Part shown: piece by piece, positions 26,355 to 57,355 of the stretch
Layout: each line of letters begins with the position of its first letter
How positions within the stretch are numbered: the stretch's first letter is position 1
Origin: Candidatus Marinacidobacterales bacterium
GTDB lineage: Bacteria; Acidobacteriota; Vicinamibacteria; Marinacidobacterales; SMYC01
Direction: 5' to 3'
Assembly (NCBI GenBank): GCA_965237955.1
Contig: OZ250169.1
Coordinates: forward strand, 4,704,001 to 4,768,000
Length of the DNA: 64,000 nt
Position numbers and translations under genes: made by a program
Notes under the pieces: generated by a model
The model's input: only the letters and a program-made list of their open reading frames with translations
Databases searched by the model: none
What the model was told of the DNA's origin: nothing

Positions 26355-26384
26355 CGTTAACCACTTGGATATCGAGGTGAAGCC

Positions 26385-41000: not shown

Positions 41001-41463
41001 AGAGGACGAGCCAGAAGGCCCGCTCACCGATCCCGGTCTCGATCAGATCTTCAAGGAGTTCCGTAAGGGCGTCGAAAAACAGCTCGGGACGGAAGACTAC
41101 GACACCCGCTACAATCTTGGGATCGCCTACAAGGAGATGGGGCTTCTCGACGAGGCGATCGCAGAGTTCCAGCTCGCGAAGAAAGACGAGCTCCGGGGGC
41201 TCGAGTGTTGCAGCATGCTCGGGTTGTGCTTCATGGAGAAGGGCATGCCGGACATCGCCATCAAATGGTTCTCCAAGGGTCTCGTGCTTCCCGGCCGCCG
41301 GGATGAGGAGTACCACGGCCTTCGATACGACCTCGCGCAGGCGCACGAGGCTGCAAATCAGCTCGAGCATGCGCTCGAGCTGTACATGGAAATCTTCAAA
41401 GACAACGCCCGGTTCCGGGACGTGAAGGACCGGGTAAGTGCGCTCCAAGCGACGCGAAAGTGA
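38041..41463 (+). CDS. Large TPR protein with acidic disordered linker, SgmX-like
   Basis: N-terminal TPR array, EAEVFVRYGL and EVDEYIALGL modules, long D/E/P-rich linker, C-terminal DYDTRYNLGIAYKEMGLLDEAI TPRs. Confidence 0.8.
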   Translation: MALNKDKIFKAADKYIRANKIEKAINEYESWLKKNPKDWNTVRVVGDLYHRIGRNDEAIKSYSLVADAYKRDGFNVRAIATHKMILRLDSQNETAMRNLAELQTEEGLLMEAKSHYQTLVELYNKQGHKRRASEVFKKLADIDPQDVKVRYKYAEFLSKQGKSDEASREYVGIADQFIGQGLVDEAVKILEQGRSLDTADPALKIKLAQAHTLQGNHAQAVRMLEEVRQSHPVDPNVLGRLGEAYLASGNTAEAETAFQQLNEAEPGNPDNVMRLADLRIAQSKFDAALEQLTPLVDKQVADNEGGKAAELLQKVLAKEPYHVKTLLKLAEVHTILKQDSARLTAYDGLCEAYNRSGDVEKAVQVAEQLVELEPENAQHKDRLNFLKSKLIGPKPAATAPPSAVFAPSPEVQLDQDLPALDDLGVIKDDEVDLGRAVADSFEAELTLDVDDQPASASAAAAADLGDVIELTQEDEENIKEKLTEAEVFVRYGLVDKAIAQLLDVLESFRFHTESREKLIEIYKDQGMSGEASEQLMQLSQVYDKLERRDESVQAREEATQLNPSLAAQAASAELAAQEEIELTLSPETDSDLGDVDIDLGAPAVAPEVAIPIAEAAPPVAEAPVEEEIDIVVDDAPEIVISLEESAVEVSVDIEEEIPVEVDLGAADVDIASSDIDLGVVANLEEPEAPTVEPDEPSLDLGDADGLEIEIDLDVSSDEISFDVAGDAGDVVVEEDAAAPVETIGLGEALGEELDISMEPDEPDAADEEFSLEMPVEPPAAPELPEIPEIPEIEDEIVSPDLGGPADASDDIEIDIPSAPRPAQPRQAASPLAAELEEVDEYIALGLYEDAQDTLGELLKQHPGNQDVLAKIEELGFSAEQVQKGHAAPAKAPTFAIPVAPEPVQDESPPQAEFVPTAPPVDDEPDPLAAALSDAPLTDDEIGIEALVYAPSPEPSPARAAASGKQFIDLASELSDEIFGTQSVIDDEEDEPEGPLTDPGLDQIFKEFRKGVEKQLGTEDYDTRYNLGIAYKEMGLLDEAIAEFQLAKKDELRGLECCSMLGLCFMEKGMPDIAIKWFSKGLVLPGRRDEEYHGLRYDLAQAHEAANQLEHALELYMEIFKDNARFRDVKDRVSALQATRK

Positions 41464-41527
41464 GATTTCCCTGAGGGTCCTGAGGGCTATTAGCATTGTT
41501 CCAGTTCGGCCGCTGGCGCGGCCTAGC

Positions 41528-41562
41528 CCTCCGCTCGACAGGCTCGCTGCGGAAGGCGGCTG
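41528..41562. repeat. Second copy of REP-like motif
   Basis: CCTCCGCTCGACAGGCTCGCTGCGGAAGGCGGCTG vs 17223-17256 (1 indel, 1 substitution). Confidence 0.75.
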
Positions 41563-41568
41563 CGCGCG

Positions 41569-41916
41569 GTGACCGTGGGAGACAGACAATGGTTCGTTCT
41601 CTACGTTCTCGTGTGTCTGGAGGTAGGTTTCTTCTTGATGCTGGTTCCGTGGTCGGCGATCTGGGAGCACAACTATTTTCTCGAGGCGTTCCCGGAGTTG
41701 AGGCCGTTTCTCTTGTCACCGACGCTTAGGGGTGCCGTCTGTGGGCTCGGTCTCGCAAACGTCTATCTCGGCGTTGCCGAGATTCTCAATCGCTTGCGCG
41801 CCGTGAGCGGTGGGCGCGCGGCTTACAACGCAACGAGCGAGCACGAGCACACTGGCCACAACCGTGACGCCGGCCCGTCCAAGCACGATGTCCTCGCCGC
41901 CCCCGAAGAGCGGTAA
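41569..41916 (+). CDS. Small 2-TM hypothetical membrane protein
   Basis: LYVLVCLEVGFFLMLVPWS.IW..NYF..RGAV.GLG..N. Confidence 0.72.
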   Translation: MTVGDRQWFVLYVLVCLEVGFFLMLVPWSAIWEHNYFLEAFPELRPFLLSPTLRGAVCGLGLANVYLGVAEILNRLRAVSGGRAAYNATSEHEHTGHNRDAGPSKHDVLAAPEER

Positions 41917-41918
41917 GA

Positions 41919-42050
41919 GCAGCATCCAGCATTCAGGTCAGTTCGCGGCGTCGCCGGTAGCGGGCGTTTTGCTTGCCGGCATGCCGAGCCCGACGAGCGA
42001 TGCGCCATTTACGGGCTGGGCGTGGTGTGGGCTGAATGCTGAATGCTGAG
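41919..42050. repeat. Inverted heptamer-repeat element, same family as 1346-1494
   Basis: CAGCATCCAGCATTCAG ... CTGAATGCTGAATGCTG; internal GCCGGTA...GCTTGCCGGCA. Confidence 0.8.
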
Positions 42051-42056
42051 TGTGCG

Positions 42057-42797
42057 ATGAACCTGCGTGAGATTCTCGACTCGTTGGGGCCGCATAGCGC
42101 TGGCAGCGACGCCGCGCGGCTACTCGATCATGCGGAAGCCGACGAAGCGCACATCCTTGCCTTGTTGAGGAAACGCGAGCTGGCGACGCCCGTGATCGAG
42201 GCGGTGGCCCGCCATGATCGCTGGAACAAGCGTCACGTCGTGCGATGCGCGATCGTCAACCACATGAAGACGCCGCGCACGTTGGCGCTCCGACTGCTAT
42301 CTTTGCTGTTCTGGAGGGAGCAGCTCCGCGTCGCCGCCAACATTCGTCTCCCCATGCCGCTCCGTTTTGCCGCCGAGAGTCGACTCAAAGAACGACTGCC
42401 CGAGCTCGAGCTCGGCGAGAAAATCTCCATCGCACACTCGGCGCCGCCCGGCCTGATTCCCGCGCTCGCCGCCTGTAACCATGCGCGGGTCATTCAATCG
42501 CTCTTGCGAAACCCGCGCATGCGCGAGCAAGAGGTTCTGGCACTCGTGAAACGAGACACGACCACGGGATCCGTCTTGCGGGTAGTCGCTCAGAGCGAGC
42601 GATGGGTCGTCCGGCCTCCGGTAAGGACCGGGATCGTGTCTCATCGAAACACGCCCGTTCACGTGGCGCTGACACTCGTCTCTCGCATGACACACCGAAC
42701 GCTGCGTGCTCTCATCAAGAACAACGAGCTGCGCCCAGTCGTCGCGATCCGCGTCCGTAAGATCCTTTCTGGCGAGGAGATAGCGTCCCCTCGTTGA
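42057..42797 (+). CDS. Conserved hypothetical helical-repeat (LRV/HEAT-like) protein
   Basis: Repeats of AIVNH.KTP / LLRNPRM / IVSH.NTP; LELGEKISIA. Confidence 0.72.
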   Translation: MNLREILDSLGPHSAGSDAARLLDHAEADEAHILALLRKRELATPVIEAVARHDRWNKRHVVRCAIVNHMKTPRTLALRLLSLLFWREQLRVAANIRLPMPLRFAAESRLKERLPELELGEKISIAHSAPPGLIPALAACNHARVIQSLLRNPRMREQEVLALVKRDTTTGSVLRVVAQSERWVVRPPVRTGIVSHRNTPVHVALTLVSRMTHRTLRALIKNNELRPVVAIRVRKILSGEEIASPR

Positions 42798-42822
42798 CAG
42801 GAAATTCCACGTCTGACACAAT
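42794..42822 (+). promoter_or_regulatory. Sigma70 promoter upstream of rodZ-like gene
   Basis: TTGACA-17 bp-CACAAT. Confidence 0.6.
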
Positions 42823-42915
42823 AGCCCTGTTAGGAGCGTAGCAGCAAGAAGGCCCCAGTCTGAGGGGGATAGCGGCATTCGGTCTCTTCCAAGCCAAAGA
42901 CTGGCCCCAATTCCC

Positions 42916-43782
42916 ATGGCGTCGCTTAGCGAGAAGCTGAGGCGCGAACGCGAGCTTCGCGGCATCAGTTTGAAGCAGATTTCCGACGATACGAAAATCG
43001 GAGTCCGTTTTCTCGAGGCTCTCGAAGAAGACAGAATCGAGCTCATACCGGGCGAGTTCTACCGCCGCTCCTACCTCCGCGCGTACGCACGGTATCTCGG
43101 ATTGGACGAGGACCGGGCCGTCAACGCGTATGCGTTTGTCCATCAGCAGAAAGACAGAAACGACGAAAGCCACGAGGGCCAAAACCGTCCTGGGATGGTT
43201 GCGTGGCTCCCCTGGGCTGTCGCTGCTTGCGTTCTCGCTCTCATTGCCGTGTTCTTCGCCCTCTCGAGCTCAGACCCCGCGGAGTCGGCGCAGAGTGCCG
43301 CGCCGCGCGCCACCAAACCCGGGGCGCCGGTGACGCATGACGCCAACGTTGCCACCGCCGGCGCGGGATCCTTGTCCTCCGATGGAAACGCCGATGCGGC
43401 CGCGAGCTCCTCGTCGTCGGCTTCCCGGAGCTCGTCGCCAGCCACCCCAAGTAACAATGTCCCGATGCTGACGCCGTCACGCGAAGGAGCGCCGGCCGAC
43501 GGAGCACTCCGCCTCGTCGTGGCTGTCGGTGAGTCTTGCTGGCTCGAGATTGAAGCGGATGGCGAGGTGGTTACCACCGGACTCAAAGAAGAAGGGTTTC
43601 GACAAGAGTTCACCGCCGATACCGAACTGCGGCTTTGGCTCGGCAATGCCGGCGGAGTGTCGCTCTGGGTCAACGATCAGCCGCTCAAGCCGTTGGGCCG
43701 TGCGGGACAAGTTCGCAAGGATCTGTCGATCACGCCGGACAACTTCATGGACTTCGTGAGCGCGGAGTCGGGGTCGTCATGA
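42916..43782 (+). CDS. rodZ: RodZ-like HTH_25 + TM + DUF4115 protein
   Basis: LRRERELRGISL..IS..TKI..FLEALE..SYLRAYARYLGLD; C-terminal CWLEI..DG..LGNAGGV. Confidence 0.88.
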   Translation: MASLSEKLRRERELRGISLKQISDDTKIGVRFLEALEEDRIELIPGEFYRRSYLRAYARYLGLDEDRAVNAYAFVHQQKDRNDESHEGQNRPGMVAWLPWAVAACVLALIAVFFALSSSDPAESAQSAAPRATKPGAPVTHDANVATAGAGSLSSDGNADAAASSSSSASRSSSPATPSNNVPMLTPSREGAPADGALRLVVAVGESCWLEIEADGEVVTTGLKEEGFRQEFTADTELRLWLGNAGGVSLWVNDQPLKPLGRAGQVRKDLSITPDNFMDFVSAESGSS

Positions 43783-44756
43783 GCTCGCCCCTCGTGACTC
43801 TGTTCTTGCTCACGCGTGACCGCGACGACGAGGTGAGCCAGCAAGCGGAGACGAGTCTCCATGTGCTGGACGAGGCGTCGCTCGTGAGCGTGCTGAAAGA
43901 GGAGGCCACTTCGGTGGACGTGCTCGCTTTTTTCGGCACTCGGGCGAGCTCCGACGAGGTCCAACAGGCGCTCGTCCGCAACGCGTCGACCCCCGACGAG
44001 ACGGTTGCGATACTCGTCCCCAAGCTCACCGAGACCAATCTGGAGTTCGTCGTTGTCAACCAGATGCGCCTTCTGAGGCACGCTCCCGTCCTCGCCGCTC
44101 TCGACGCCAACGAGAATCTCAACTTCGACCAGGAGCGGCGCATCAAAGAGCTCAAGTTCGACTTCAAGCTCGACCGCCCCGCCGAGGAGACCGAGCCGCC
44201 GCGGCCGGAACCACAAGCCCCACAGAAACTGGATCTGGGCGCGGGACCGGCCGAAGAAGAGAAGCCCCCGCCCCGCTCGACCGAGGAAGCGGCAGAGCTC
44301 TACGGCGTATCAGATGATACGGAGGCCACCGAGGAAGAGCAGGCGGAGAAGAAGAGCTTGGTGGCCGAGCTCGTCACCATGACCGCCGCCGAGAAGATGA
44401 TGAAGGCTCTGAAAGGCGAGCGCGAGGCGCGGATGATGCTCATCCGCGATCGAAACCGTACCGTGTGGAGTGCCGTCCTCTCGAGCCCCAAGATGAACGA
44501 ATCCGACGCCGAGCAGATTGCCAAGATGCGCAACGTCGCCCCCGACGTGTTGCGAGAGATCGCGAAAAACCGTCAGTTCGTGAAGCGCTACATCGTGGCG
44601 CACGCGCTCGTCAAAAACCCGAAGACCCCGCACGAGGTGTCTTCCAAGCTCCTGGCAAGACTCAAAGATCGCGACTTGAAGCGACTGATTAAGGACCGTA
44701 ATGTCTCTGAGCAGGTCCGTCGTCTCGCGCAAAAGCGTACGCGTACAAACAAATAG
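43779..44756 (+). CDS. Conserved hypothetical helical-repeat protein
   Basis: ALVRNASTPD, MT.AEK..AL.G.REAR..LIRD.N..V..AVL.SPK, LVKNPKTP; ATGA overlap with rodZ. Confidence 0.78.
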   Translation: MSSPLVTLFLLTRDRDDEVSQQAETSLHVLDEASLVSVLKEEATSVDVLAFFGTRASSDEVQQALVRNASTPDETVAILVPKLTETNLEFVVVNQMRLLRHAPVLAALDANENLNFDQERRIKELKFDFKLDRPAEETEPPRPEPQAPQKLDLGAGPAEEEKPPPRSTEEAAELYGVSDDTEATEEEQAEKKSLVAELVTMTAAEKMMKALKGEREARMMLIRDRNRTVWSAVLSSPKMNESDAEQIAKMRNVAPDVLREIAKNRQFVKRYIVAHALVKNPKTPHEVSSKLLARLKDRDLKRLIKDRNVSEQVRRLAQKRTRTNK

Positions 44757-44770
44757 CCGAGCTAGGATCG

Positions 44771-45372
44771 ATGACCGACGACTACTACGCAATCCTCCGC
44801 GTGGCCAAGACCGCGTCCACAGGAGAGATCAAAAAAGCCTACCTGCAGTTGGCCCGGGACAACCATCCCGATCGATTCAAGGATCCGGCCGAACGCGACG
44901 AGGCCGGTCAGCGGTTCCAGCTGATCACCGAAGCGTTCAACCAACTACGTGATGAGAAAAACCGTAAGGAGTATGATAGGGATCTCTCGAAAGTGACGAA
45001 GCCCCCCGAGGAGGAGGCTCGTCTGTATTTCAAGAACGGGGAGTTGCGTGAGCAAGCTCAAGAATACGACTACGCCTTGAAGCTCTACTACGAAGCGATG
45101 CGCCTGCAGCCGGACAACGTCGACTACATTCTCGCGGGGCGGGGCGTTTGTTGGCCAAGGACAAGGCCAAGCAGCGCCAGGCGGTGGACCTCTTCAACCA
45201 GGCGATGCAGAAGGACCCGACCTCACCCGAGCCACATCTCGAGCTCGGCGCGCTCTACTCGAGAACGGGTATGCTCGTCCGCGCCAAGCGGGTCTACGAA
45301 AACGCGTTGAAGCAGTTGCCGAATCACCCCGAGCTCAAGCGCCGCTTTGCGCAAGTCAAGGAGGATAAGTAG
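44771..45372 (+). pseudogene. J-domain (DnaJ) + TPR protein, frameshifted at ~45135
   Basis: DDYYAIL..EIKKAY..HPD; TPRs continue in another frame (LLAKDKAK..) after CGGGG CGGGG; may be a sequence error. Confidence 0.82.
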
Positions 45373-45380
45373 AGCTGACA

Positions 45381-46130
45381 ATGGTCGAATCACGTTCTCT
45401 CAGCGATGTGGGCCTCAAGCGCCCCATCAACGAAGACAGCTTCTGCTCGAACGATGACGAAGGTCTGTACGTGGTTGCCGACGGGATGGGTGGTCACGCT
45501 CATGGTGAAGTCGCTTCGCGCATTGCCGTCGACACCATCGCGGACTTCATCAAGCTCACGTCGGGCGACCAGGAGATCACCTGGCCGTACGGAATCGACG
45601 AAGGTCTCACCCTCAACTCGAACCGCCTCAAGACGTCGATTCGATTCGCCAACCAGAAGCTGCTCGAGCACACCCAACAAGAGTCGGACTGCGAGGGCAT
45701 GGCGACGACGGTGGTGGCGGTGCTCGTCGAAGAGGGCGTGGCGGACATCGCGCACGTTGGTGACTCTCGCGTGTATCTGGTTCGAAGCGGTGACATTCGA
45801 TGCCTTACGAGCGATCATTCCTGGGTGAACGAGCAGGTGATGTCGGGAGTCATCGACAGCGACCAGGCGCGCACCCATCCTCTGAAAAATGTCGTAACCC
45901 GCGCGCTCGGCGGCAAGTCGGATCTCGAAGTCGACGTCCAGACGCTCGAGCTCGAGACCGACGATCGGATTTTGTTGTGTTCGGACGGACTGACGACGAT
46001 GCTCGACGACAGTCAGATACTCGACATCGTGCTCGATGGAGGAGTCGAGGCGGCCGACCGACTCGTCGAGGCTGCAAATCGAAACGGAGGGGAGGATAAT
46101 ACGACGACGATTTTGCTCCGGGTTCCGTGA
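45381..46130 (+). CDS. PP2C (Stp1/PrpC-type) Ser/Thr phosphatase
   Basis: NED, VADGMGGH, HVGDSR, DHS, TRALG, CSDGL, GGEDN. Confidence 0.96.
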   Translation: MVESRSLSDVGLKRPINEDSFCSNDDEGLYVVADGMGGHAHGEVASRIAVDTIADFIKLTSGDQEITWPYGIDEGLTLNSNRLKTSIRFANQKLLEHTQQESDCEGMATTVVAVLVEEGVADIAHVGDSRVYLVRSGDIRCLTSDHSWVNEQVMSGVIDSDQARTHPLKNVVTRALGGKSDLEVDVQTLELETDDRILLCSDGLTTMLDDSQILDIVLDGGVEAADRLVEAANRNGGEDNTTTILLRVP

Positions 46131-46230
46131 TTTTGGGTTTTGCCGGCTTGCTCGAAAGCTCCGCCCCCCCGGACGTTTCGGGCATGCTGTTGGGGTAGGG
46201 GTCTCGATCATTAAAATGTACCGGTGAGCA

Positions 46231-48442
46231 ATGACGGATAAAGATACAGACGTTCGCATCGGCAAATCCACCATCATCCGCCGTCTCGGGCGAGGGGGGA
46301 TGGGGGCCGTTTACGAGGGGCACGATCCGGCGCTCGATCGCAGCGTGGCGATCAAGACATTGACGGCCGATGTCATCGCCGACAAGGACTCGCGTAGTCG
46401 CTTCGAGCGCGAAGCCAAAGCAGCGGCGAAGCTGCAACACCCCAACATCGTCACGATCTACGAGCTCGGGAACTTCGGCGGCAACGAAAAGCCGTATATC
46501 GTGATGGAGTATCTTGAGAGTACGGACGTCTCGACGTTCATCGGCAAGAAGGGTATGCCGATTGCCGAGGCCCTCGATATCACGGTTCAGCTGTGTCGTG
46601 CTCTCGATTTCGCTCACCAAAATGGTGTCGTGCACCGTGACGTGAAGCCGGCCAACCTGCGCTATCTCGACAACGGTCAAGTCAAGATCATGGATTTCGG
46701 CATCGCTCGCATGGAGGGCGGCCACCAGATCACCAAGAGCGGGGTGATGATCGGGACCCTGCACTACATGTCACCCGAACAGATTCGAGGTCAGAAGCTC
46801 GACGGCCGCACCGATATCTTCTCCGCCGGTTGCATCCTCTATGAGCTTCTCACCGGTGAGCGACCCTTCCCCGGTGAATCCGCTACGTCGATTCTCTACA
46901 ACATCGTGAACGAGACGCCGACGCCGATCGTCGAGAAGAATACGGACCTTCCTCAGGAAATCCAGGACGTTGTCGATCGTGCGATGGCCAAGAATCCCGA
47001 TGATCGGTTCAAGGCCGCCGGAGAAATGGCTCGCGAGATCGAGAAGATCGTCAACGTTTTTCGCAAGACGCTACCTCGCACCACGCAGGTGTTGCAGCAG
47101 AGTCTGGACGAGCTCTCCGCTCTGAGCCGCGCGAAAAAGTGGCAGGAGCTCGTGCCCAAAGCGCGGGAGCTCCTCGAGCGCCATCCGCAGCTCGACGAAG
47201 CGCGGCGCCATCTCCGACGGGCCCTACGTGAGCTGCGCCACCAAGAGACCGAGCATCAGCTGACGGCAGAGGACCGGACCCGTCACCTCGAAGAGATCCA
47301 GCACGAGCTCACCGACCTCTACGGCTCCCGCTCAGCCACGATGCGCGGTGTGTCCGACGAAACCGAGCTCGCCACCGCGACGCCGACGAGGAGCTCGCTC
47401 GAACCGCTCCCGGCCGGTGAAGCCAAGGAAGGAAGCGGAGAGCCCGAGTCGACAGCAGCAGTGCGCGCTCTCGCCGCACCGATCTGGGCGCTGGTTATCG
47501 TGGTTTTGCTGGGTCTCGCCGGAGTGTTGTACTGGCTGTTCCTGCGCGAGCCACCCGGACCACAACCGGTGTCGCACACGATCCAAGTTCGCTCAGAGCC
47601 GCCGGGTGCCGCGGTCTACCTGAACGGAGCCGCCACCGGACTCGTGACCACTAGGACGACGACGGCGTTGAGCTGCTCCTTTCGGGCATGACCGAGGAGT
47701 CGCACGCGATCGAAGTCCGGCTCGAAGGTTTCGAGTCGGCCTCGAACGACGTCACGTTGATGATCGACCCGCCGGCGCCGCTCGAGTTCGTGTTGACATC
47801 GACGATGCGGCTTTTCGAGCTAGGAACCGCACCCCAAGGAGCGACTGTTACGCTCGACGGGGAAACCATCGACGGCGTCACGCCGATGACCCTGGAGCTT
47901 TCGGACGATGACCACGAGATTCGGCTTTCACGAACGGACTATCGCTCGGCCACGGTCGAGATCGCCCGAGGCCAGCCGCGTCCCTCGGGGCCGGTCCAGC
48001 TCACACCGCTGGGGCGGCCAGGGACGTTTCAAGTGCAAGCGAGCTATCCCGTCGCGATCCTCCCGTCGCGATCCTCCGAGGGGAACGAGAGATGGCCGCC
48101 GCGTCGACGAGCCCGAGCGTGCAGCTTCGGCCGGGGAGTTATCAGCTTCGGCTGTTGGCGCCCGACAAGTTCTTGAACCGCTCGGTCCAAGTGACGATCC
48201 GTGAGGCCAACGTGACCACGCACCAGGCGCCACCGCTCGGGCGCGTCAACGTCCGCGCCAACCCCGGCAACTGTACCCTGACTATCGACGGCATGCCGGC
48301 CGGTGCGCCGCCGTTCATGAACCGTGAGGTGGTGACGGGGGAACACGAGTTCGTGTTCACCTGGCTGGGCGACGTTACCGATGTTCACACCGTCACGGTG
48401 GGCGCGGCGCAGCCGGCTTATGTGATCGGGCAAAGACCATGA
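46231..48442 (+). pseudogene. Hanks-type Ser/Thr kinase, TM, extracellular PEGA domains; two frameshifts (~47652, 48047-48074)
   Basis: GRGGMG, VAIK, HRDVKPAN, DFG, YMSPE; TM; PEGA SEPPGA.VYLNG, TAPQGA.V.LDG; ORF pieces 46231/47688/48092 are collinear. Confidence 0.88.
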
Positions 48443-48444
48443 TG

Positions 48445-48473
48445 CGCCATCAGCCATCGGCCATCAGCCATCG
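48445..48473. repeat. (GCCATCR)n heptamer arm
   Basis: GCCATCA GCCATCG GCCATCA GCCATCG right after the kinase stop. Confidence 0.85.
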
Positions 48474-48505
48474 GTTGGGCGGCGTGCCTTTGAGGAGGAC
48501 TTGTT

Positions 48506-50016
48506 GTGAGTGATCGGTTGAGACTTCGGGTGGTTTTGCTTGGCTTCTTCTTGTGATTGCGGCAACTGCTTTTGCTCAGGGGCCGCCGACGGATTTGGCG
48601 CGTCAGCATCTCGAGAGCGGCACTCAGTTTTATGAGCAGGGTCGTTACAAGCAGGCGTTGAACGACTTCCAGATTATCGTGACCTCGATGGCCGATACCG
48701 AATACGCGGACGACGCCCTGCTCCTCATCGGACGCTACTACCTCGATATCGAAGAGGATTTCGACGAGGCCAAGGAGAGCTTTGACGCGGCGCTGCGCGG
48801 CTACCCGACGGGCAATGCGGCGCCGGGCGCGTACTACTACCTGGGCGAGGTGGTGTTTCGCTCGGACCGGACCGGTGGCGCGATCGACGATGCGCTCGCG
48901 AACTATCAGCGTGTGTTTCTCTATGCGGGCAATCCTTGGATTCCGGCCGCGCTGTACTCGACCGGCCGTGCGCTCGAGCGCCAGGGCAGGTTTCAGGACG
49001 CCGTGGACGCCTACTTTCAAGTCATCGTGGACCACTCCCGATCGGATTGGTCGGCCGGTGCACAGCTCGGGGTCGGGCGAAGCTCGGTGAGGCAAGGCGA
49101 GCCGCTGGGGGCCATGGCTCAGTTCCAGGAAGTGAGAAACAACTATCCGGATACGGCTGAGGCCGACGTGGCGCTCGACTGGCTGACGCTCTTGTACCGC
49201 TTCTACGGCGCACCGATGCTGGGAAAGTCGGTCTCCTTCCGGAAGGACTCGAGCTTCAAGCCAGCGCTCCGGGACAAATTCAAAGACGTGAGAGCACTGC
49301 GGGTGTCCGACAGCGGAATCCACGTCCTCGAGCGAGGGCGCAAGCGCGTGATCACCTTCGACCGAGCCGGCCAGCTGGCGGGAACGATCGCCGCCGCCAA
49401 CCCGTACGGGTTATCCGTCGACCCGCGTGGCCAGCTCGTCATCGCCAGCGAGAAGGGTCTCATCCTCGATGGAGCACCCAGGAGCTACACCGTGCCGGCG
49501 AAGGACGGACCCGAGCCCCTCGAGAAGATCCGCTGGGCGGCTCGCGATCGATTGGGCGAAGTCTACGTCTATGACGAGAAGCAGAAAAAGATCTTGAGGT
49601 TCGATGAAACCGGGCAACTGCTCGGCCCGTTCCCGGACGCAACACCGCGCGAGGTGTTGGCCATCGAAGTCGACCAGCTCGGCAATCTCGTGCTGCTGCT
49701 GAAGAAGGATCGCGACGTGATCGTGTACTCTCCCGGGGGCCGGGCGCTCGCGAGGATCCCGACGAAGCGCGGTGGCCCGGTGACGCTCAAGAAAGCGACC
49801 GACATCGCCCTCGATCCGGCAGGCTATCTTTACATTCTCGACCAAGACCGAGCGCAAATCGCGGTGTTCGACGCCGCTTACCAACACCTCACGACGTTGA
49901 CGGCTCAGAGCCTCGGCTCTGGTGCTCTCCAAAAGCCCGTTACCATGGACGTCGACGCTTCCGGAGCTCTCTATGTTTATGATGACAAGGCGAAAGCGAT
50001 TATCCGGCTTCATTGA
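48506..50016 (+). CDS. Exported BamD/YfiO-like TPR + NHL beta-propeller protein; signal peptide frameshifted at T-run 48534-48537
   Basis: GAGGAGG RBS then GTG 48506 (MSDRLRLRVV) joins FAWLLLVIAATAFA only if one base is added; TPRs (YADDALL, AYYYLGE), NHL (DIALDPAGYLYILD). Confidence 0.8.
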
Positions 50017-52258
50017 GCCCGTTCAGGTTGTCCATGTTGTTCTCGGCTGCCTGCTAGCAGCGACTGCATTCGCGCCCGGACAAGCTCAAGCTCGAGCTCA
50101 GCAGGCGCCGGGCTTTGGGCAGGCCGAGCAGCTTGAACCAGCGAGGGGCGCGCTGACGCTCGAGGAGCAGGAGCTCCTGTTCCGGCTCTCGCAGCAGTTC
50201 CAGGAAGCGCTCGAGCTCTTCGAGGATCCGCAGCGGCAGTCACAGTCCATCTACTTTTTCACCCAGATCGTCGATGCGGTGAACGATGAGCGGCGTACCC
50301 AGGAGGAAGTGGCCTCGGAGATCATCGCTCTCCAGCAGCGTTCGCTCGAGCATCGAGCGCGGTCTTTTTTTACGGCAGGACAGCTCCAGGGTGCCACCGA
50401 CGATTTCCGCCAGCTCCTGCTCGACAACCCTCGCTACGGACTCGATACCGAGGCGCTGTCGCCACGGCTCGTCGACTTCTTCGAAGATCTGAAAAAGCAG
50501 CTCATCGGCTATGTCGCCGTAACCACCGAGCCCGCAGGCGCGCGGGTGATGGTGAACGGTAACTTCATCGGGATCACCAACTTCTTTCCGATCGAGGTGC
50601 ACACCGGGATCGCACGGATCGAGGTCACGCTCGAAGGACACGAAACATACGCCGATGACGAAATGAGGATTGGTCCGGGAGAGATCACGACGCTGGATCT
50701 CGCGTTGACGCGCACCAGCGCCCGACTCCCGATCATCACCGATCCGTCCGGTGTCGAGATCGTCGTCGACGGGGAAGTCGTCGGCGCGACATCCGGAACG
50801 TTACCTCCGGATCTTCGAAGCTTCATGCCCGCGAACATGGATCCGAACCGGCTTTCGGCTCCGTACGAGCTCGGGGCGCTTCCCCTGGGACAGCATCAGA
50901 TCGAGCTGCGCTTGGATTGTTACCGGTCAGTCTCGTTTCCGTTCAACGCGGACGAGCCACGGGATTACACGGCGCAAATCGTCAAGCTCGAGGACTCGAT
51001 CGGAAGCTTGACCATCACCTCCAATCCGTCGGAGGCGAGCGTGTACATCGACGGAGAGCTCCGGGGCACGACACCACTCGATCTGAAGCGGGTGTGCTCG
51101 GGTCCGCACCATCTCGAGGTGAAACACGTCACCGGGAAGTACGTCGAAGACATCGACGTCGGTCCGGACGAATCCCTCTCGTTCGAGTGTCCGATTCGAC
51201 CTACGCTCGCCATCGTCGGCATCGTCGCCGATGAAGAGGTTTCTGCGCGCGATGTGGCCGATATCCGGCAAAAGCTCCGGGAGGAGCTCAAAAACCTCGA
51301 GCGAATGAACCTCGTGTTCGCCGAAGACGAGCTGGTAAGGACCCAAATGGGAGCGGCGGGGTTGACTGCTTTCGTCCCGGCGCGATCGGACGCTGATGTC
51401 AGCACCGATCAGGTCCGCGAGCTCTCGGAAAAACTCGGAAAAGCACTCGAAGCCGAAGCGCTTCTCGTCGCCTACGTCCCGTCACAGCGGTTGGTCAAAG
51501 ATATCGTGCTGCACTTTATCGCCGTGGGCTCGACCGTTCCCGACGTATACCCGCTCAACTACCTCGACCCGCAAGCGTTCCCAGCGTTTCTGGACGAGCT
51601 GTCGACGCCGACGCCGCTTCACGGAAGCTGGGCCGGATTTCTCGCCGTCGACACCCGTATCAACGACGGGCCCATCGTCCTCGCGGTCGGTGCCGGCGGA
51701 CCGGCCGAGGCGTCAGGTCTACAACCAGGTGACGTCGTCGTCGCCGCAGACGGGAATCCCGTGACCCGAGCGCTCGATCTCCTGGAGGCGGTCCGCGCGG
51801 CCGAGCCAGGCGCGAGCGTGGCCCTCAACATTACCCGAGGCGGCTCGAGCTCCTCGCTCTCGCTCAATGTCGGCACCACACCGCTCGAAGTCCCGTTAGG
51901 CGATCCGAGCTTTCTTTACAACAAAGCGATCGTCGACTTACGCCATCGGATGGTGACCGAGCCCGAGAACGAGAACCTTGCTCGTTTGAACGTGGGTTTG
52001 TGTCACATGGAGCTGGGTGACTACGAGACCGCTCTCAAGGAGTATTTGCCTCGGGTGGTGCTGCCGGAGACGACCGGGATCTCTCAAGGGACGGTTTTGT
52101 ACTACACGGCGCTCGCCTATTTGAAACTCGGCGAGAGGGCCGACGCGGCACGCCTGTTCCAACGAGCACTCGGCTTTCCGGACGCGACCCTCCACTCGAA
52201 CGACGGCCCGAGAGTCGCACCACTGGCCCAACGCCGCCTCCGCGAGCTCGGCCAGTAG
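49982..52258 (+). CDS. Exported protein with 3 PEGA domains, PDZ and TPRs
   Basis: Signal-like N-terminus; TEPAGARV.VNG, TDPSGVEI.VDG, SNPSEASVYIDG..GTTP; PDZ GPAEASGLQPGDVV..DG; C-terminal TPR; start uncertain. Confidence 0.85.
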   Translation: MTRRKRLSGFIEPVQVVHVVLGCLLAATAFAPGQAQARAQQAPGFGQAEQLEPARGALTLEEQELLFRLSQQFQEALELFEDPQRQSQSIYFFTQIVDAVNDERRTQEEVASEIIALQQRSLEHRARSFFTAGQLQGATDDFRQLLLDNPRYGLDTEALSPRLVDFFEDLKKQLIGYVAVTTEPAGARVMVNGNFIGITNFFPIEVHTGIARIEVTLEGHETYADDEMRIGPGEITTLDLALTRTSARLPIITDPSGVEIVVDGEVVGATSGTLPPDLRSFMPANMDPNRLSAPYELGALPLGQHQIELRLDCYRSVSFPFNADEPRDYTAQIVKLEDSIGSLTITSNPSEASVYIDGELRGTTPLDLKRVCSGPHHLEVKHVTGKYVEDIDVGPDESLSFECPIRPTLAIVGIVADEEVSARDVADIRQKLREELKNLERMNLVFAEDELVRTQMGAAGLTAFVPARSDADVSTDQVRELSEKLGKALEAEALLVAYVPSQRLVKDIVLHFIAVGSTVPDVYPLNYLDPQAFPAFLDELSTPTPLHGSWAGFLAVDTRINDGPIVLAVGAGGPAEASGLQPGDVVVAADGNPVTRALDLLEAVRAAEPGASVALNITRGGSSSSLSLNVGTTPLEVPLGDPSFLYNKAIVDLRHRMVTEPENENLARLNVGLCHMELGDYETALKEYLPRVVLPETTGISQGTVLYYTALAYLKLGERADAARLFQRALGFPDATLHSNDGPRVAPLAQRRLRELGQ

Positions 52259-52375
52259 CGCTCGCGGCGAGAACGATCCATACTTGCCGCAGCAGTGCGT
52301 GACGAACCGCCGCTTTTCACGCGCCGGCGGGCGGATCGCAAGGACGTGCTATCTGTTGGGGGGGACGAGGTTTCT

Positions 52376-53863
52376 GTGAACAAGCTCATCATTCGACACG
52401 GCGAGCGCGTGACCGAGCATCCGATCGATGACCATCCGCTCGTCGTCGGCCGCGACCCGCAGTGCGATCTTTTTTTCGCCGACAAGAAGCTCTCGCGGCG
52501 CCACGCGCGCTTCGAGCGAGACGGTGACGGCATCCGGCTCGTGGACTTGGGAAGTCGCAATGGCTGCTGGGTCAACGAAGAGAGGGTCGAGAAGAAACTT
52601 CTGACACCGTCCGACGCCGTTCGTCTCGGCAGCCTATCGGTCACTCTGGAAGCAGAGCCGGAACCGGCCGAGCGCGACGACCAGGAGTCGACGGTATACC
52701 TTTCGGCGGAGCCCCCGTCGGACGATAGCGGGACCATGGTGTTGTCCAGCAATGATTTGCCGGATGCCGAGCCACCGCGGGACGCGGGCACGGTCATCCT
52801 CCCCCCGCCCGACACGCCCGACGCGAACGCCCCGGCGCAGGACTCGACGACGCGCAGGGTAGAAGTGGGCCACGAAGACCCGACGTTGAGAAAGCCCGAC
52901 ACCGTCGCTCGAGAAGCCCGAGAAGGAAGCTCCGAGCAAACGATCATGCTTCAAGGGAACGCACCTCGAGCCGCAACCGATACCGGGACCGTCATCTTTC
53001 GAGGCAAGACCGCTCCCGCCATGGACGATGCGACTCGACTCGCGCCCGCCGGCGGTGCCGCCGAAACGAAGATGCAGGCCCCCGGCGCGCCTCGGTTGCC
53101 CGAAGCGTCGCCCGATACATCGGTGCAGCCGGGCGAGCAATCCTGGGACTTCGAGCCCCCCGTCCGGGCGGCACGTCCACTTCAGGCGAGCACTCTCCGG
53201 TTCGTGGGCTTGGTCGCGGCGATCGCGGCGCTTGCGTTCGTCGTTCTGGCCATGCCGTTGCTGCGCACGCTCGGGAGCGCCCTTGCGGCGGAGTCTTCGC
53301 TTCGAGGCCGGGCCCTCGTCGATCTGCTGGCGGCAACCAACGAAGAGGCGTTGCGTGAGAATCGTCCGGAGACGCTCTCCACCGAACGCGTCGCCGGTGA
53401 GCCAGGCGTGGTCGGGGCGTACATTCTCGATCCGATGGGGCGGGTCCTCGCCCCCGCGGCGATGCCCGGTGAGTCGTCGGGACCACTCCTTTCGAATCTC
53501 GGCTTCGACGTCGAAGCGAAGGACATCCGCGCGTTCCGCGAAAGCCGAGCCGGGGACGACACCACCGTGTACGCGTTACCGGTTCGCGCCCAGGGGCGAC
53601 GGCTCGGAGTTGCCGTGTTGCACTACCGCGTCGGCGCCGCGGTTTCCAGGTGGACCGTGGTGATGCTCGTGCTCGGATCGCTTCTCCTTCTGATGGGGGT
53701 GGCTGCGGCGGTGTTGGTGGCGAGGCGATGGACGCTCCTGCCGGTCCAGGAGCTCAAAGACGATGTCGAAGCTCTCCGGCGCGGGTTCGTCGAAAGCCTC
53801 GCCGAGGACCGGCCGTACTCGGATCTTGCTACCATCGCACGCAACTTCAACGAGCTCGTGTAA
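52376..53863 (+). CDS. FHA - Thr-motif array - TM - periplasmic domain - TM - HAMP membrane protein
   Basis: FHA VGRD..CD...LSRRHA..DLGSRNG; two TMs; HAMP P..EL...DL..IA.NFN; frame continues past TAA to 53962. Confidence 0.82.
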   Translation: MNKLIIRHGERVTEHPIDDHPLVVGRDPQCDLFFADKKLSRRHARFERDGDGIRLVDLGSRNGCWVNEERVEKKLLTPSDAVRLGSLSVTLEAEPEPAERDDQESTVYLSAEPPSDDSGTMVLSSNDLPDAEPPRDAGTVILPPPDTPDANAPAQDSTTRRVEVGHEDPTLRKPDTVAREAREGSSEQTIMLQGNAPRAATDTGTVIFRGKTAPAMDDATRLAPAGGAAETKMQAPGAPRLPEASPDTSVQPGEQSWDFEPPVRAARPLQASTLRFVGLVAAIAALAFVVLAMPLLRTLGSALAAESSLRGRALVDLLAATNEEALRENRPETLSTERVAGEPGVVGAYILDPMGRVLAPAAMPGESSGPLLSNLGFDVEAKDIRAFRESRAGDDTTVYALPVRAQGRRLGVAVLHYRVGAAVSRWTVVMLVLGSLLLLMGVAAAVLVARRWTLLPVQELKDDVEALRRGFVESLAEDRPYSDLATIARNFNELV

Positions 53864-54164
53864 CAGCGCGACCCTGACACCTCAGGAAGTGGCTCGGCCA
53901 CGTTCGAGCCAATGCTCGATCCCACGCTGGTGCCGGAAGAACACGAGCAAGCCGATCGCTAACCTCGGAGCTCGGGACGTACACGGCGGCGAGGATTTGG
54001 GGCGTGTCCCTGCAGAGAATTGGACCGAGGCGCGAAGCGCCGAGCACCACGAGCTGATGGCTGATGGCTCGCGGCGGTCAATGGGTTGCGGCTCCGCCGC
54101 GCCGTGATCCTGTGGTAGTCTTGTCTTCGGTGTTTTTCTATTCCCCGCGAGTGCTATTCCAGCC

Positions 54165-54506
54165 ATGAAGATACGAACCCATCCTGAATACCCCTGTTTG
54201 CTGGTTCCCAACAAGAACGGGAAACAAAAACGGTTTCCCATCAAGCTGCGTGAGGCGAGCGTCGGGCGTGATCCGTCGAACGACATCTGTATACCCGACC
54301 ATTTGGTGAGCAAGTTTCACGCGAAGCTTCTCGTCTCCAATCAGAGCGTCACCGTCGTGGATCTCGAGAGCGCGAACAAGACCCGGGTCAACGGTCAAAT
54401 CGTCACCCACTCGGCCGTGGGCTTCGGAGACGAGCTGCAGTTCGCGCGGGTCAAGTGCCAGCTCGTGCTCCACGCCAGCGAGTACCGCCCGAGTAAGATC
54501 GGATGA
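54165..54506 (+). CDS. Stand-alone FHA domain protein
   Basis: VGRDPSNDI.I.D..VSKFHA..DLESAN.T.VNG. Confidence 0.88.
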   Translation: MKIRTHPEYPCLLVPNKNGKQKRFPIKLREASVGRDPSNDICIPDHLVSKFHAKLLVSNQSVTVVDLESANKTRVNGQIVTHSAVGFGDELQFARVKCQLVLHASEYRPSKIG

Positions 54507-54955
54507 GCCTTTCTGAACGTCTCCAAAAAGATCTCGTCGAAGCGATGAAAGCCCGTGAGACCACGCGGGTGAGCGTGCTGCGCCTCATCAAGTCCGCGAT
54601 CCAGAACAAAGAGATCGAGCTCGGCGAGGCACTCTCCACCGAGCAGGAGATCCAGCTGCTCCAGGCGACGGTCAAACAAAGAAACGAGTCCATTGCTACG
54701 TTCGAGAAAGCGGATCGCCAGGACCTCGCTGCCAAGGAAAAAGAAGAGCTGACCTTCGTGCGGGCCTACTTGCCCGAGGAGGTTTCCCTTGACGAGGTGG
54801 ACCAAGTGGTCGCTGCGGTCGTCGACGAGCTACAAGCCAGCGCCCCCAAGGACATGGGAAACGTCATGAAGGAGACCATGGCTCGCCTCAAGAAGACCGG
54901 AAAGACGGTGGACGGCAAAGTCGTCAACCAGATCGTTCGCTCGAAGCTATCTTGA
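54503..54955 (+). CDS. yqeY: GatB/YqeY domain protein
   Basis: L..AMKA....LRLIKSAI, KQR.ESI..F..A.R.DL, YLP, KDMG.VMK. Confidence 0.93.
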   Translation: MSLSERLQKDLVEAMKARETTRVSVLRLIKSAIQNKEIELGEALSTEQEIQLLQATVKQRNESIATFEKADRQDLAAKEKEELTFVRAYLPEEVSLDEVDQVVAAVVDELQASAPKDMGNVMKETMARLKKTGKTVDGKVVNQIVRSKLS

Positions 54956-54975
54956 GCTCACCTCGAAAGAAAAAC

Positions 54976-55020
54976 TCACCGCAGAGGCGAATCTCTGCGT
55001 CCTCTGCGTCTCTGCGGTGA
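54976..55020. repeat. (CTCTGCG)n hairpin repeat
   Basis: TCACCGCAGAG...CTCTGCGT CCTCTGCGT CTCTGCGGTGA. Confidence 0.75.
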
Positions 55021-55028
55021 TTTAGGCC

Positions 55029-55937
55029 GTGTTGAAGCCACCAGCTGTTCGAGACGGGGCTGTTGTCGGCGTCATTGCTCCTGCAAGTCCGGTACGGCGG
55101 GATTTCGTCCAGCGTGGTGTGGAGGAGCTGTCACGGCTCGGGTTTCGGCCGCAGCTCGGTGCGCATCTGTACGACCGGGGCCGCTACACCGCGGGGAGCT
55201 GGCAAGATCGCCTCGACGATCTCGTCACGTTGTGGGATGATCCGGAGGTCGAAGCGATCTTCTGTGCCCGCGGCGGCTACGGCAGCATGGAGCTACTCTC
55301 ATCGCTAGAGCCTGAGCGGTTTCGTGAGCGACCGAAGGTGTTTGTCGGGGCGAGCGACATCACCGCCGTGCACGGCTTTCTCGGCGCCCGTGCGGGCGTG
55401 GTCGCGTTTCACGGCCCGATGGTCGCCCAAAAGATCGCGCGCGGGAGCTACGACGCCGAGGGTTTGCTTCGCCTGATTCAATCCAAAGAGCCTCTGGGCG
55501 CCTTGGTTGCAACCGGAACGGAAGTGCTGCACTCGGGCTCTGGGGAGGGGACTCTTTTTGGCGGCTGTCTTTCGATCGTCGCCTCTCTCGCGGGTACGCC
55601 TTTTTTCCCTCCGTGCGAAGATGCGATCCTGTTTCTCGAAGACACGCTCGTCAAACCCTACCAGATCGATCGAATGTTGACGCAGCTGCGACTCGCCGGT
55701 TGCCTCGATTCCATTCGCGGTTTCGTCTTCGGCCAAATGGCGAACTGCGAGCAGCAGCCGGAGCAAGGCTACACGCTCCAAGAGATGGTGCGGGATTGGA
55801 CGGCTCCTCTTGGAGTGCCGGTGCTGTATGGCTTTCCATCGGGACACACCGTAACCGACGCGATGACGCTTCCGCTCGGTGTCCGCGCGCGCCTCGATGA
55901 GGATGGACTCCATCTCCTCGAAGGGGCCGTCGCTTGA
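55029..55937 (+). CDS. ldcA: LD-carboxypeptidase (S66)
   Basis: ARGGYG, G.SDIT, HGP, LFLED, GH catalytic motifs. Confidence 0.93.
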   Translation: MLKPPAVRDGAVVGVIAPASPVRRDFVQRGVEELSRLGFRPQLGAHLYDRGRYTAGSWQDRLDDLVTLWDDPEVEAIFCARGGYGSMELLSSLEPERFRERPKVFVGASDITAVHGFLGARAGVVAFHGPMVAQKIARGSYDAEGLLRLIQSKEPLGALVATGTEVLHSGSGEGTLFGGCLSIVASLAGTPFFPPCEDAILFLEDTLVKPYQIDRMLTQLRLAGCLDSIRGFVFGQMANCEQQPEQGYTLQEMVRDWTAPLGVPVLYGFPSGHTVTDAMTLPLGVRARLDEDGLHLLEGAVA

Positions 55938-57355
55938 TCCCGGCGATCGGGGAGTGTGGGGTTCACCTTCTCGGCGTTGGTGGCACCGCCATGGCGTCGT
56001 TGGCCGGTCTTCTGATCGAGGCGGGGCATACCGTCACCGGCTCGGACGAGAACGTCTACCCCCCGATGTCCGACCTTCTCGCGGAGCTCGGAGTCGACGT
56101 GCGCTCTCCCTATCGAGCCGACAACGTACCCCACGATTGCGATCTCGTCATAATAGGGAACGCGATCTCCCGCGGCAACCCCGAGCTCGAGGCGGTTCTC
56201 GCGCGGCGCGTCGCGTATGCGTCGATGCCGGAGGTTCTCAAGGAGCTCTACCTCCGCACCCGCACCCCGGTCGTCGTGTCGGGTACCCACGGCAAGACCA
56301 CGACGAGCTCGATCGTCGCCTGGCTGCTGGAAAGCGCCGGGCACGATCCCGGGTTTCTCGTCGGTGGCATCCCCCTCAATTTCGGAGTCAGCTATCGGAG
56401 TGGCTCGGGAGAGGCGTTCGTCGTCGAAGGCGATGAGTACGACACCGCGTACTTCGACAAAGGTCCCAAGTTTCTTCACTATCTTCCCCAAGTCGCGATT
56501 ATCGGAAACGTCGAGTTCGACCACGCCGATATCTATCGCGACGTTTCCGACGTCGAGCGGGCGTTCCGCTTGTTCGCAAACCTAGTGCCCCAAAACGGTT
56601 TGTTGGTGGTGGGCTACGAGAGCGAGTTGGCGATGACCATCGCTTCCAACGCTCCGTGTCCAGTGACGACGTTTGCGTTGGCCGGAGACGCCGACTGGAG
56701 GTTGGAGGTCTTGTCGAGCGATGCGAGCGGGACTCGTTTCCGCGTACTCCACCACGGCGATACCGTCACCGAGACCGAGGGCCCGTTTGGGGGCGACGCG
56801 GCGCTCAGAAACGCACTTGCCGCCATCGCCGCCACCGAGCCCTTCGGTGTCACCGGTGACGAGCTCGCGAGTGCCCTGACATCGTTTCGCGGCGTGCGGC
56901 GGCGTTTCGAAGTGCGCGGCGAGGAGGGAGGCGTGGTCGTCGTAGACGACTTCGCGCACCATCCCACCGCGATTGGTGAGACGTTACGAAGCGCGCGTTG
57001 TTGGTTTCCGGGGCGGAGGATTTGGGGTGTTTTCGAGCCGAGATCGTTTACCGCGCGAAGCTCGGTGTTTCAGAAAGAGCTCGCGGTCGCGTTGGCGTTC
57101 GCCGATTCGGTAGTCGTTGCCGGAGTGCTGACAACGTCACGCCTTCCCGAGGAGAACGAGCTAGCCGAAGAGACGCTGGTTGCGGATTTGCGCGCGTCGG
57201 GGACACCGGCCTCGTTCATTGCCGCGCCCGACGACATCGTGCGTTTTCTCGAAGGTGACGTGCGACCAGGCGATGTGGTGATGGTGATGTCGAACGGAGG
57301 ATTCGGCGGGCTGCATGAGAAGCTTCTCGACGCCTTGAGTCGCTCGTCGGGCTAG
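55934..57355 (+). CDS. mpl: Murein peptide ligase (MurC-like recycling ligase)
   Basis: GVGGTAM, YPPMS, GTHGKTTT, EGDEYDTAYFDK.PKF.HY, DDFAHHPTAI, MSNGGFGG. Confidence 0.93.
   Translation: MIPAIGECGVHLLGVGGTAMASLAGLLIEAGHTVTGSDENVYPPMSDLLAELGVDVRSPYRADNVPHDCDLVIIGNAISRGNPELEAVLARRVAYASMPEVLKELYLRTRTPVVVSGTHGKTTTSSIVAWLLESAGHDPGFLVGGIPLNFGVSYRSGSGEAFVVEGDEYDTAYFDKGPKFLHYLPQVAIIGNVEFDHADIYRDVSDVERAFRLFANLVPQNGLLVVGYESELAMTIASNAPCPVTTFALAGDADWRLEVLSSDASGTRFRVLHHGDTVTETEGPFGGDAALRNALAAIAATEPFGVTGDELASALTSFRGVRRRFEVRGEEGGVVVVDDFAHHPTAIGETLRSARCWFPGRRIWGVFEPRSFTARSSVFQKELAVALAFADSVVVAGVLTTSRLPEENELAEETLVADLRASGTPASFIAAPDDIVRFLEGDVRPGDVVMVMSNGGFGGLHEKLLDALSRSSG

Follow-up and report, generated by a model that had tools for sequence, protein, structure and literature searches.

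In the H1 type VI secretion system (T6SS) of Pseudomonas a signalling pathway comprises TagQ/TagR, PpkA, PppA and Fha1, and TagQ and TagR are proposed to dimerise the kinase PpkA (PMC13713981). In a second system, PknD of Mycobacterium tuberculosis, a six-bladed NHL propeller outside the cell is part of the receptor kinase system (1rwi). Here we describe a locus that would resemble both in its working but belongs to neither. It lies within a stretch of 64,000 nucleotides (the window; contig OZ250169.1, positions 4,704,001 to 4,768,000) from a Candidatus Marinacidobacterales bacterium whose genome is one contig of 8.1 Mb and 98% complete. The core of the locus is formed by three genes, encoding a Hanks kinase with a PEGA stalk (K), a TPR+NHL protein (T) and a protein with the domain order TPR, three PEGA, TolB_N-like, PDZ and TPR (P). 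An earlier note on this DNA had proposed that seven co-oriented genes at 44771-54506 make up an undescribed trans-envelope signalling module. The listing of open reading frames, the sequence and family scans confirm all seven as real, with those domains and positions and on the + strand; the co-oriented run is however longer, with an SgmX-like TPR gene (38041) at its head and mpl (57355) as its last member, and several of the gene copies are damaged.

The likeness to the T6SS pathway lies in the combination of a membrane Hanks kinase, a PP2C phosphatase, FHA proteins and two accessory proteins that are predicted here to be exported, and the kinase, PP2C and FHA genes are clustered as in that pathway. 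Unlike the TagQ/TagR-PpkA system, the locus has no T6SS core marker, T and P are built from TPR, NHL, PEGA and PDZ domains with no lipobox visible by eye, and the pair outlives the kinase. TssC/VipB, the single marker searched, gave no match in this 98% complete genome (the E. coli control was positive), in agreement with the earlier statement that T6SS structural genes are lacking. The profile of the TagH/Fha1-type FHA protein (TIGR03354) scored 35.9 bits, against a cut-off of 120. With PknD the system shares the six-bladed propeller, but here this is carried by a separate, predicted exported TPR protein and the kinase has a PEGA stalk. NHL and kinase are separate genes in all the loci read, so there is no PknD-type fusion. 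Apart from the T6SS, periplasmic partners are known for only a small number of receptor kinases in Gram-negative bacteria.

LbcA-CtpA and NlpI-Prc are pairs of a TPR adaptor and a PDZ protease. With these and with HtrA/DegS the system has in common an HtrA-type PDZ domain and periplasmic TPR scaffolds; unlike them, P has no protease domain, and its PDZ and TPR domains are fused and linked to a kinase. The TolB_N/LpoB-type fold in P, and the propeller and CpoB-like TPR in T, recall TolB/CpoB of the Tol-Pal system and LpoB in a new order, but these are matches at the level of the fold only, and separate TolB, CpoB and BamD genes are present. FHA-rich Kil clusters in Myxococcus are proposed to be phospho-controlled (PMC8460266), and Tad clusters with FHA proteins are described in Bdellovibrio (bioRxiv 10.64898/2026.07.08.737194). 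Paralogues of the FHA genes of the window similarly sit in FHA-rich Tad-like operons of relatives; unlike the Kil and Tad clusters, the genome of the window has no Tad marker, and the window copies are shorter and lie beside yqeY-ldcA-mpl. No description of the trio was found in the literature searched, subscription papers and supplements lying outside the search, and the only family label attached to the trio is 'PEGA domain-containing protein'. The proposal of a previously undescribed trans-envelope phospho-signalling module is supported, for the K-T-P unit.

Conservation and anatomy of the K-T-P trio

We denote genomes, loci, families and sequencing runs by G, L, f and X, respectively; G000 is the genome of the window. 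A profile of P matched 110 of 301 genomes of the phylum and a deeper profile 139, where the 301 include G000 and the unpublished G063 (a match for PilT and a non-match for P and K). P is present in 41/41 genomes of the order, and over the 139 genomes it is mostly single-copy and mostly all-or-none within a family. Gene order was read in 99 loci of the phylum, taken from 97 of the 109 other genomes matched by the first profile, those left out being mainly short contigs; 40 of the 99 loci helped to build profiles, and 59 are only ~8 kb or shorter. Of the 97 loci where this could be tested, 95 have T as the gene immediately ahead of P, and T is in turn preceded by K or its ectodomain in 66 of 93. 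Families f1 and f2, the two closest to the window, show K ahead of T in all 21 loci. The adjacency of the three genes spans ~20 families, and the trio occurs down to genomes of 1.9-2.4 Mb. Genomes in which K does not adjoin the pair usually encode a homologous ectodomain at another site (e.g. E 8e-65 in G084 and E 6e-61 in G053). At strong thresholds 110 of the 301 genomes have both the K ectodomain and P, 20 have P only, 4 have K only and 167 have neither, the genomes being related and hence not independent.

The remaining genes behave differently. The order PP2C-K-T-P is found in 15 of 15 f1/f2 loci, with the J gene in 14 and a following FHA-HAMP gene in 12, so that conservation of gene order, offered originally as a check, holds in these two families; phylum-wide it holds only for K-T-P. 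J plus PP2C are directly upstream in 2 of the 99 loci, and the C-terminal part of the FHA-HAMP protein is nearby in one, bearing in mind the 59 short loci. PP2C is within view in 13 of the 99, making it a frequent but not a fixed neighbour, and clustering of 40 loci of 20 kb revealed no further steady neighbour, PP2C coming next with nine. Since the phylum-wide linkage covers only these three genes, the conserved unit is K-T-P, and J-TPR and PP2C are lineage-level neighbours; the view of the seven genes as one system is not supported. A mostly single-copy trio across many acidobacterial families represents a concrete envelope module in an abundant and poorly studied phylum.

K (46231-48442; Pfam Pkinase E 2.6e-54, with PEGA matched on its pieces) comprises a Hanks kinase domain, a helical linker, one transmembrane (TM) segment at about residue 420 and a four-domain ectodomain of PEGA type. 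The glycine loop, catalytic lysine, HRD, DFG and activation-loop motifs are all found in the window kinase and in each of eight intact relatives. K has the single TM segment and extracytoplasmic domain of a receptor, the ectodomain being 180-377 amino acids in homologues from the phylum, and is predicted to be a Hanks-type receptor Ser/Thr kinase.

T (48506-50016) has a Sec-type signal peptide, a CpoB/BamD-like TPR domain and a six-bladed NHL propeller; NHL was found in 44 of 84 homologues, and the profile matches are to TRIM-NHL and the PknD sensor 1rwi (E 1.3e-27). The Sec signal peptides of T and P, without a lipobox, were judged by eye from the N-termini, and export is thus a prediction. 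T is not BamD, scoring 56.4 bits on TIGR03302 against a cut-off of 81.4, and BamD is found over the cut-off elsewhere in five of five genomes. Nor is it CpoB/YbgF: the window copy scores 85.6 bits on TIGR02795 against 90.1 (the G009 copy scores 98.3), and each of the five genomes has a better match elsewhere, adjoining TolB in four. Full-length TolB matches lie elsewhere in all five, with TolB and CpoB over the curated cut-off in two of the five each. Because BamD, TolB and CpoB genes exist separately in all five genomes, T and P are not replacement parts. A weak test for fusions found no full-length T within a longer protein among 7996 candidates.

P (49982-52258) overlaps the end of T by 35 bases. 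It does contain the three PEGA, PDZ and TPR domains originally reported, but an N-terminal helical, TPR-like domain and a domain of TolB_N/LpoB fold had been overlooked. The structural model (predicted local distance difference test score (pLDDT) 85, predicted TM-score 0.56) begins with the helical domain, after which come the PEGA sandwiches, three in number, then an alpha/beta domain of the TolB_N/LpoB fold (residues ~405-545), the PDZ domain (547-634) and a YbgF-like C-terminal TPR. The PDZ domain aligns with that of 1y8t, which is HtrA-type, over 86 residues (Z 15.3, root-mean-square deviation (rmsd) 1.2), and the last TPR with 2xev (Z 13.3). The alpha/beta domain of the G009 copy folded alone with a pLDDT of 92. 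Foldseek matched this domain to TolB (E 1e-4) and LpoB (E 3e-4), and VIA to CT253 (Z 9.4, rmsd 2.9, 125 aligned), TolB (Z 7.5) and LpoB (Z 6.7); the structural matches, which comprise the TolB N-domain, LpoB, GNA1162, PelC and CT253, place it in this class at the level of the fold. A Foldseek search with the whole protein was dominated by PDZ and pilin-like matches. No protease domain is present in the model and only the PDZ part matches HtrA/DegS, so P is not a protease of that kind. W550 and G552 are invariant in 15 sequences. Two cysteines in adjacent PEGA domains are kept in 102 of 115 sequences, and conservation of the pair fits an oxidising compartment. Covariation between T and P was no different from shuffled data (maximum Z 5.8 vs 5.6); that between K and P (Z 7.0 vs 5.1, on the P side mostly in PEGA2) rests on a single shuffle, is confounded by descent and is not taken as support.

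Among the best 150 library matches to P there are >120 full-length clusters at 50% identity. Those homologues that have names are called 'PEGA domain-containing' or TPR proteins and come from Thermoanaerobaculia, Vicinamibacterales and Polarisedimenticolia, together with one CSSED10-310 record, and the Atlas matches are Acidobacteriota clusters without names. A scan with sequence patterns, derived from close relatives, located full-length P in Acidobacteriota only; given the CSSED10-310 record, its range may extend beyond the phylum. In family f73 (G218, G227, G236, G263 and G317) the P homologues align only from about position 110-135 and occur in up to three copies; these genomes gave no K-ectodomain match, and at least four are without PilT.

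Order of gene loss

Where the trio is damaged, it is the kinase that goes first. K is broken in nine of the 21 f1/f2 loci, T in none and P in two. Of the 11 near-complete assemblies (1-30 contigs), K is broken in eight, while T, P, PP2C, ldcA and mpl are unbroken throughout (Fisher p 0.001 for K vs P, although the genomes are related). The lesions in K differ from one genome to another, and include frameshifts, insertions of ~1.5 kb and deletions. In family f3 (genomes of 2.7-4.2 Mb) P is present in 14/14, and no match to the K ectodomain better than E 2e-15 was found in the 14 genomes. All five f3 loci read retain T-P-FHA-ldcA-mpl. The ratio of nonsynonymous to synonymous substitution for three f3 pairs was 0.16-0.33 for T and 0.09-0.22 for P, indicating purifying selection. 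G026, G028 and G040 each have a single Hanks kinase, without a TM segment, so that three of the five f3 genomes have no receptor kinase; further kinases, of which some contain hydrophobic segments, are found in G020 and G032. Because T and P are intact and under purifying selection where K is broken or lost, the T-P pair has a selected function that is independent of the kinase. This goes against the suggestion that the exported proteins are dedicated kinase activators, and the ordered loss, with the kinase lost first and the pair kept, shows which part carries the selected function.

In kinase-less lineages some domains of P drift. PEGA2 and the alpha/beta domain drop by 2-3 standard deviations in f3, and PEGA2 drifts also in G229, but not in f20 or G050, so this is a hint only. 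All five small f3 genomes (L242-L246) retain a soluble kinase that bears a CxxC..CxxC ribbon at its C terminus, and in three it is the sole kinase.

The copy in the window is itself damaged. Two extra bases near 45136 separate J from TPR. In K, seven bases are lost near 47653 and 14 are duplicated at 48047, which severs the ectodomain and leaves kinase plus TM segment (486 amino acids) without the full ectodomain. A TAA at 53861 trims the tail of the FHA-HAMP protein. In relatives J-TPR is a single frame of 198-207 amino acids in most, and the kinase is 723-763 amino acids in eight. Contigs of run X1 (share 0.96), which is possibly the source of the window assembly, agree gap-free with the window at all four sites (J, both kinase breaks and 53861), and run X2 agrees at the two breaks in the kinase. 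In runs from other studies J is intact (X5, X12), as is the kinase at 47653 (X3, X5, X7, X12) and at 48047 (X3, X5, X7, X11, X12), and there is no premature stop at 53861 (X3, X7, X11). The seven-base loss and the 14-base duplication, which occur in two samples, are best read as lesions of the strain, and so are the break in J and the stop at 53861. Assembly error as the cause of every break was rejected for these sites. It was accepted at 48541, where a break in the signal peptide of T is a one-base assembly error; the extra base is present in all four runs compared, among them X1. In this strain T, P and PP2C are intact and the sensing arm is in decay. Of 78 kinase loci in G000, 36 are full and in one frame, 10 are split across frames and 32 are partial. 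The window PP2C is the sole full-length match to NF033484 in the genome, others being partial or split, and the split and partial kinase and PP2C matches together suggest a decaying signalling repertoire.

A possible function and its alternatives

The observed gene content, domain make-up, linkage and order of loss lead us to a mechanism that is conjectural in all its binding steps, in the ligand and in the substrates. T would bind P, the two genes overlapping and being almost always adjacent. The T-P complex could then grip exposed peptides of envelope proteins by the HtrA-type PDZ domain and three TPR grooves, acting as a protease-less adaptor or chaperone scaffold. The PEGA stalk of the kinase may dock on P, most likely on its PEGA arm, leading to clustering and activation of the kinase, which would phosphorylate T-x-x-hydrophobic motifs of membrane FHA proteins, to be reset in turn by PP2C acting on these motifs; the FHA proteins wired into the pathway may vary with the lineage. 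We therefore tentatively propose, at a little less than an even chance, that T and P together make a scaffold in the periplasm which binds peptides, lacks a protease and serves envelope upkeep, and whose state is reported by the kinase. This reading draws on the K-T-P linkage, the co-occurrence of K and P, the persistence of T and P without K, the PknD-homologous propeller and the intact kinase and FHA motifs. A bolder form, possible but doubtful, is that T and P are a hitherto undescribed core envelope machine of about half of the Acidobacteriota, assembled from reshuffled Tol-Pal-, LpoB- and HtrA-type parts. The PEGA kinase would then be its dedicated read-out, in a diderm envelope-stress pathway operating by Ser/Thr phosphorylation and not by regulated proteolysis, and lineages with decaying genomes would have shed the sensing arm repeatedly.

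A number of observations weigh against the scaffold proposal. The TolB_N-like fold is common to many envelope proteins, and with a best Z of 9.4 it names no function. The strict carboxylate-loop pattern is present at the aligned PDZ columns in only 56 of 115 P sequences, and neither K nor T offers the PDZ domain a conserved free tail as a candidate ligand, the C-terminus of each being a beta-strand. The similarity of K and P (hhalign 99.7%) may reflect no more than the general resemblance among PEGA domains. With no P match in 162 of the 301 genomes, the role is not a universal one. As to the order of loss, the group of 11 assemblies was set by assembly type after part of the pattern had been seen, and P is broken in two of the other 10, in one of which nine of 14 genes are broken. 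The f3 genomes are 91-95% complete, and one of them, G032, has a PEGA receptor kinase elsewhere.

The FHA proteins are the candidate substrates. The first (52376-53863, FHA E 2.8e-17) has an FHA domain with intact motifs, an acidic linker, a TM segment, a Cache-like periplasmic domain, a second TM segment and a degenerate HAMP domain; over 10 copies HAMP was matched in three and Cache only weakly. It had been called a receptor, and the FHA and HAMP domains are indeed there, but no output domain follows HAMP in any of 11 copies. T-x-x-hydrophobic motifs are typical FHA ligands. The linker has 5-9 T-x-x-[ILVM] motifs, more than in shuffled sequences in 11/11 copies (p 0.001-0.039), and because of this enrichment it is a plausible local substrate for phosphorylation, but the gene is only a local neighbour. 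The membrane part of the protein was matched in 30 of 151 genomes of the class. In seven of 11 loci around such matches it belongs to a longer paralogue that forms part of a Tad-like operon, with two additional FHA genes and a PilB-like ATPase coming after it; two are partial, and in two (L235, L236) the short form stands beside FHA-yqeY-ldcA-mpl at a distance from the trio. The second, stand-alone FHA gene (54165-54506, FHA E 3e-14), whose stop overlaps the start of yqeY, has BLAST matches in L231-L234 and L240, each to the gene that follows the paralogue of FHA-HAMP. Since the paralogues occupy Tad-like operons and short forms occur apart from the trio, the two genes are likely, judged from sequence, to be shortened and co-opted paralogues of the Tad block and not core parts. 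The Tad-like operon of relatives (L231, L232, L233, L234, L237, L239, L220/L138) contains TadE, CpaB, a fused CpaE/TadA-type ATPase and platform genes, with three FHA genes, a second, PilB-like ATPase and, in L231, a secretin; it is FHA-rich like the Kil clusters.

If T and P were dedicated co-receptors of the kinase, and the seven genes one pathway ending on the FHA-HAMP protein, then the conserved order in f1/f2, the co-occurrence of K and P, the motif arrays in the linker and the TagQ/TagR precedent (PMC13713981) would be accounted for. We regard this as unlikely, since T and P are intact and under purifying selection in G026, G028 and G040, which have no receptor kinase, and the FHA genes are missing from nearly all loci of the phylum and, in G001, G002 and G014, are found away from the trio. 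The opposite view, that T and P cooperate while the kinase is a co-regulated neighbour making no contact with them, would be consistent with repeated loss or breakage of K without visible effect on T or P, and with the 27 of 93 phylum loci that have no K upstream. It is rather unlikely too, for the K ectodomain is rarely found without P (4 of 114) and the adjacency extends over ~20 families.

Two further explanations involve pilus or Tad/Kil functions. The module might feed the control of cell poles and type IVa pili through the SgmX-like protein and MglA/MglB. The cluster begins with an SgmX-like gene in f1, f2 and f7; that in the window (38041-41463) matches NF052243 with E 4.7e-60 and 204 bits, which at a cut-off of 1800 places it outside the SgmX family, and its best stretch is the C-terminal TPR region. 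In Myxococcus it is the C-terminal TPRs of SgmX that bind MglA-GTP (PMC7668184). G000 has mglB-mglA, three PilT and two secretins. However, an SgmX-led block flanks the trio in just two of 40 wider phylum loci, and a single-protein query found no SgmX-like match in any of the five f3 genomes keeping T-P. PilT is present in 276 of the 301 genomes regardless of P, and at least five P-bearing genomes are without it; control of secretin and pilus genes, as earlier suggested, is not borne out, and we consider this explanation improbable. The trio might otherwise sense contact for a Tad/Kil-like apparatus and act on the FHA proteins of that apparatus, much as PpkA acts on the T6SS. In G256 a Tad-like operon containing three FHA genes lies immediately ahead of the trio, the FHA genes of the window are paralogues of that block, and the phospho-control proposed for Kil clusters (PMC8460266) would provide a parallel. 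Yet such adjacency is found at one of 40 wider loci, f8 genomes have a Tad-type FHA gene but no P, and in G000 RcpC/CpaB gave no match (the control matched) and there are two T2SSF genes only, each near a match to a PilB/PilT-family ATPase. This is highly improbable. A candidate kinase in the Tad cluster of G256 was rejected, the gene being an MFS/spermidine-synthase fusion.

Neighbouring genes

J-TPR (44771-45372) has a J-domain (DnaJ E 9.7e-19) and TPR. The PP2C phosphatase (45381-46130) scores 245.4 bits on NF033484, over the cut-off of 230, and so belongs to the Stp1/IreP family. The upstream block (38041-44756, + strand) consists of the SgmX-like TPR gene, a small membrane open reading frame, two related helical proteins without a family and a RodZ-like protein, and accompanies J-PP2C-K-T-P in families f1, f2 and f7. 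The two helical proteins (42036-42797 and 43635-44756) match no Pfam or NCBIfam family, and are kept in f1, f2 and f7 and partly in f21. The SgmX-like gene at the head of the cluster and a recR-mglB-mglA run (G000 C1:2515713-2517575) make up a Myxococcus-type polarity kit in an acidobacterium. Downstream (54503-57355, + strand) Pfam identifies yqeY, an S66 LD-carboxypeptidase (ldcA) and a Mpl-type Mur ligase (mpl), a block that travels with the two FHA genes. The last two (55029-57355) are still found after T-P-FHA in the five f3 loci, reduced as these are; they are the only neighbours with a known envelope role, and were unseen in 40 wider phylum loci.

An Rfam scan gave no matches, and a scan for promoters and terminators gave results at chance level. 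A 19-base intergenic repeat at 48448-48466 has 12 exact copies in the genome. The gap at 53968-54298, before the small FHA gene, is covered at 240-fold depth in run X1, indicating a multi-copy element. An IS200-like transposase (37428-37880) precedes the SgmX-like gene. On the minus strand a secretin gene lies at 62423-63901, in a frame of 682 amino acids running past the end of the window. At 24765-28265 an FHA-GAF-adenylate cyclase is followed by a Cache-HAMP-HD protein, providing another possible phospho-threonine reader.

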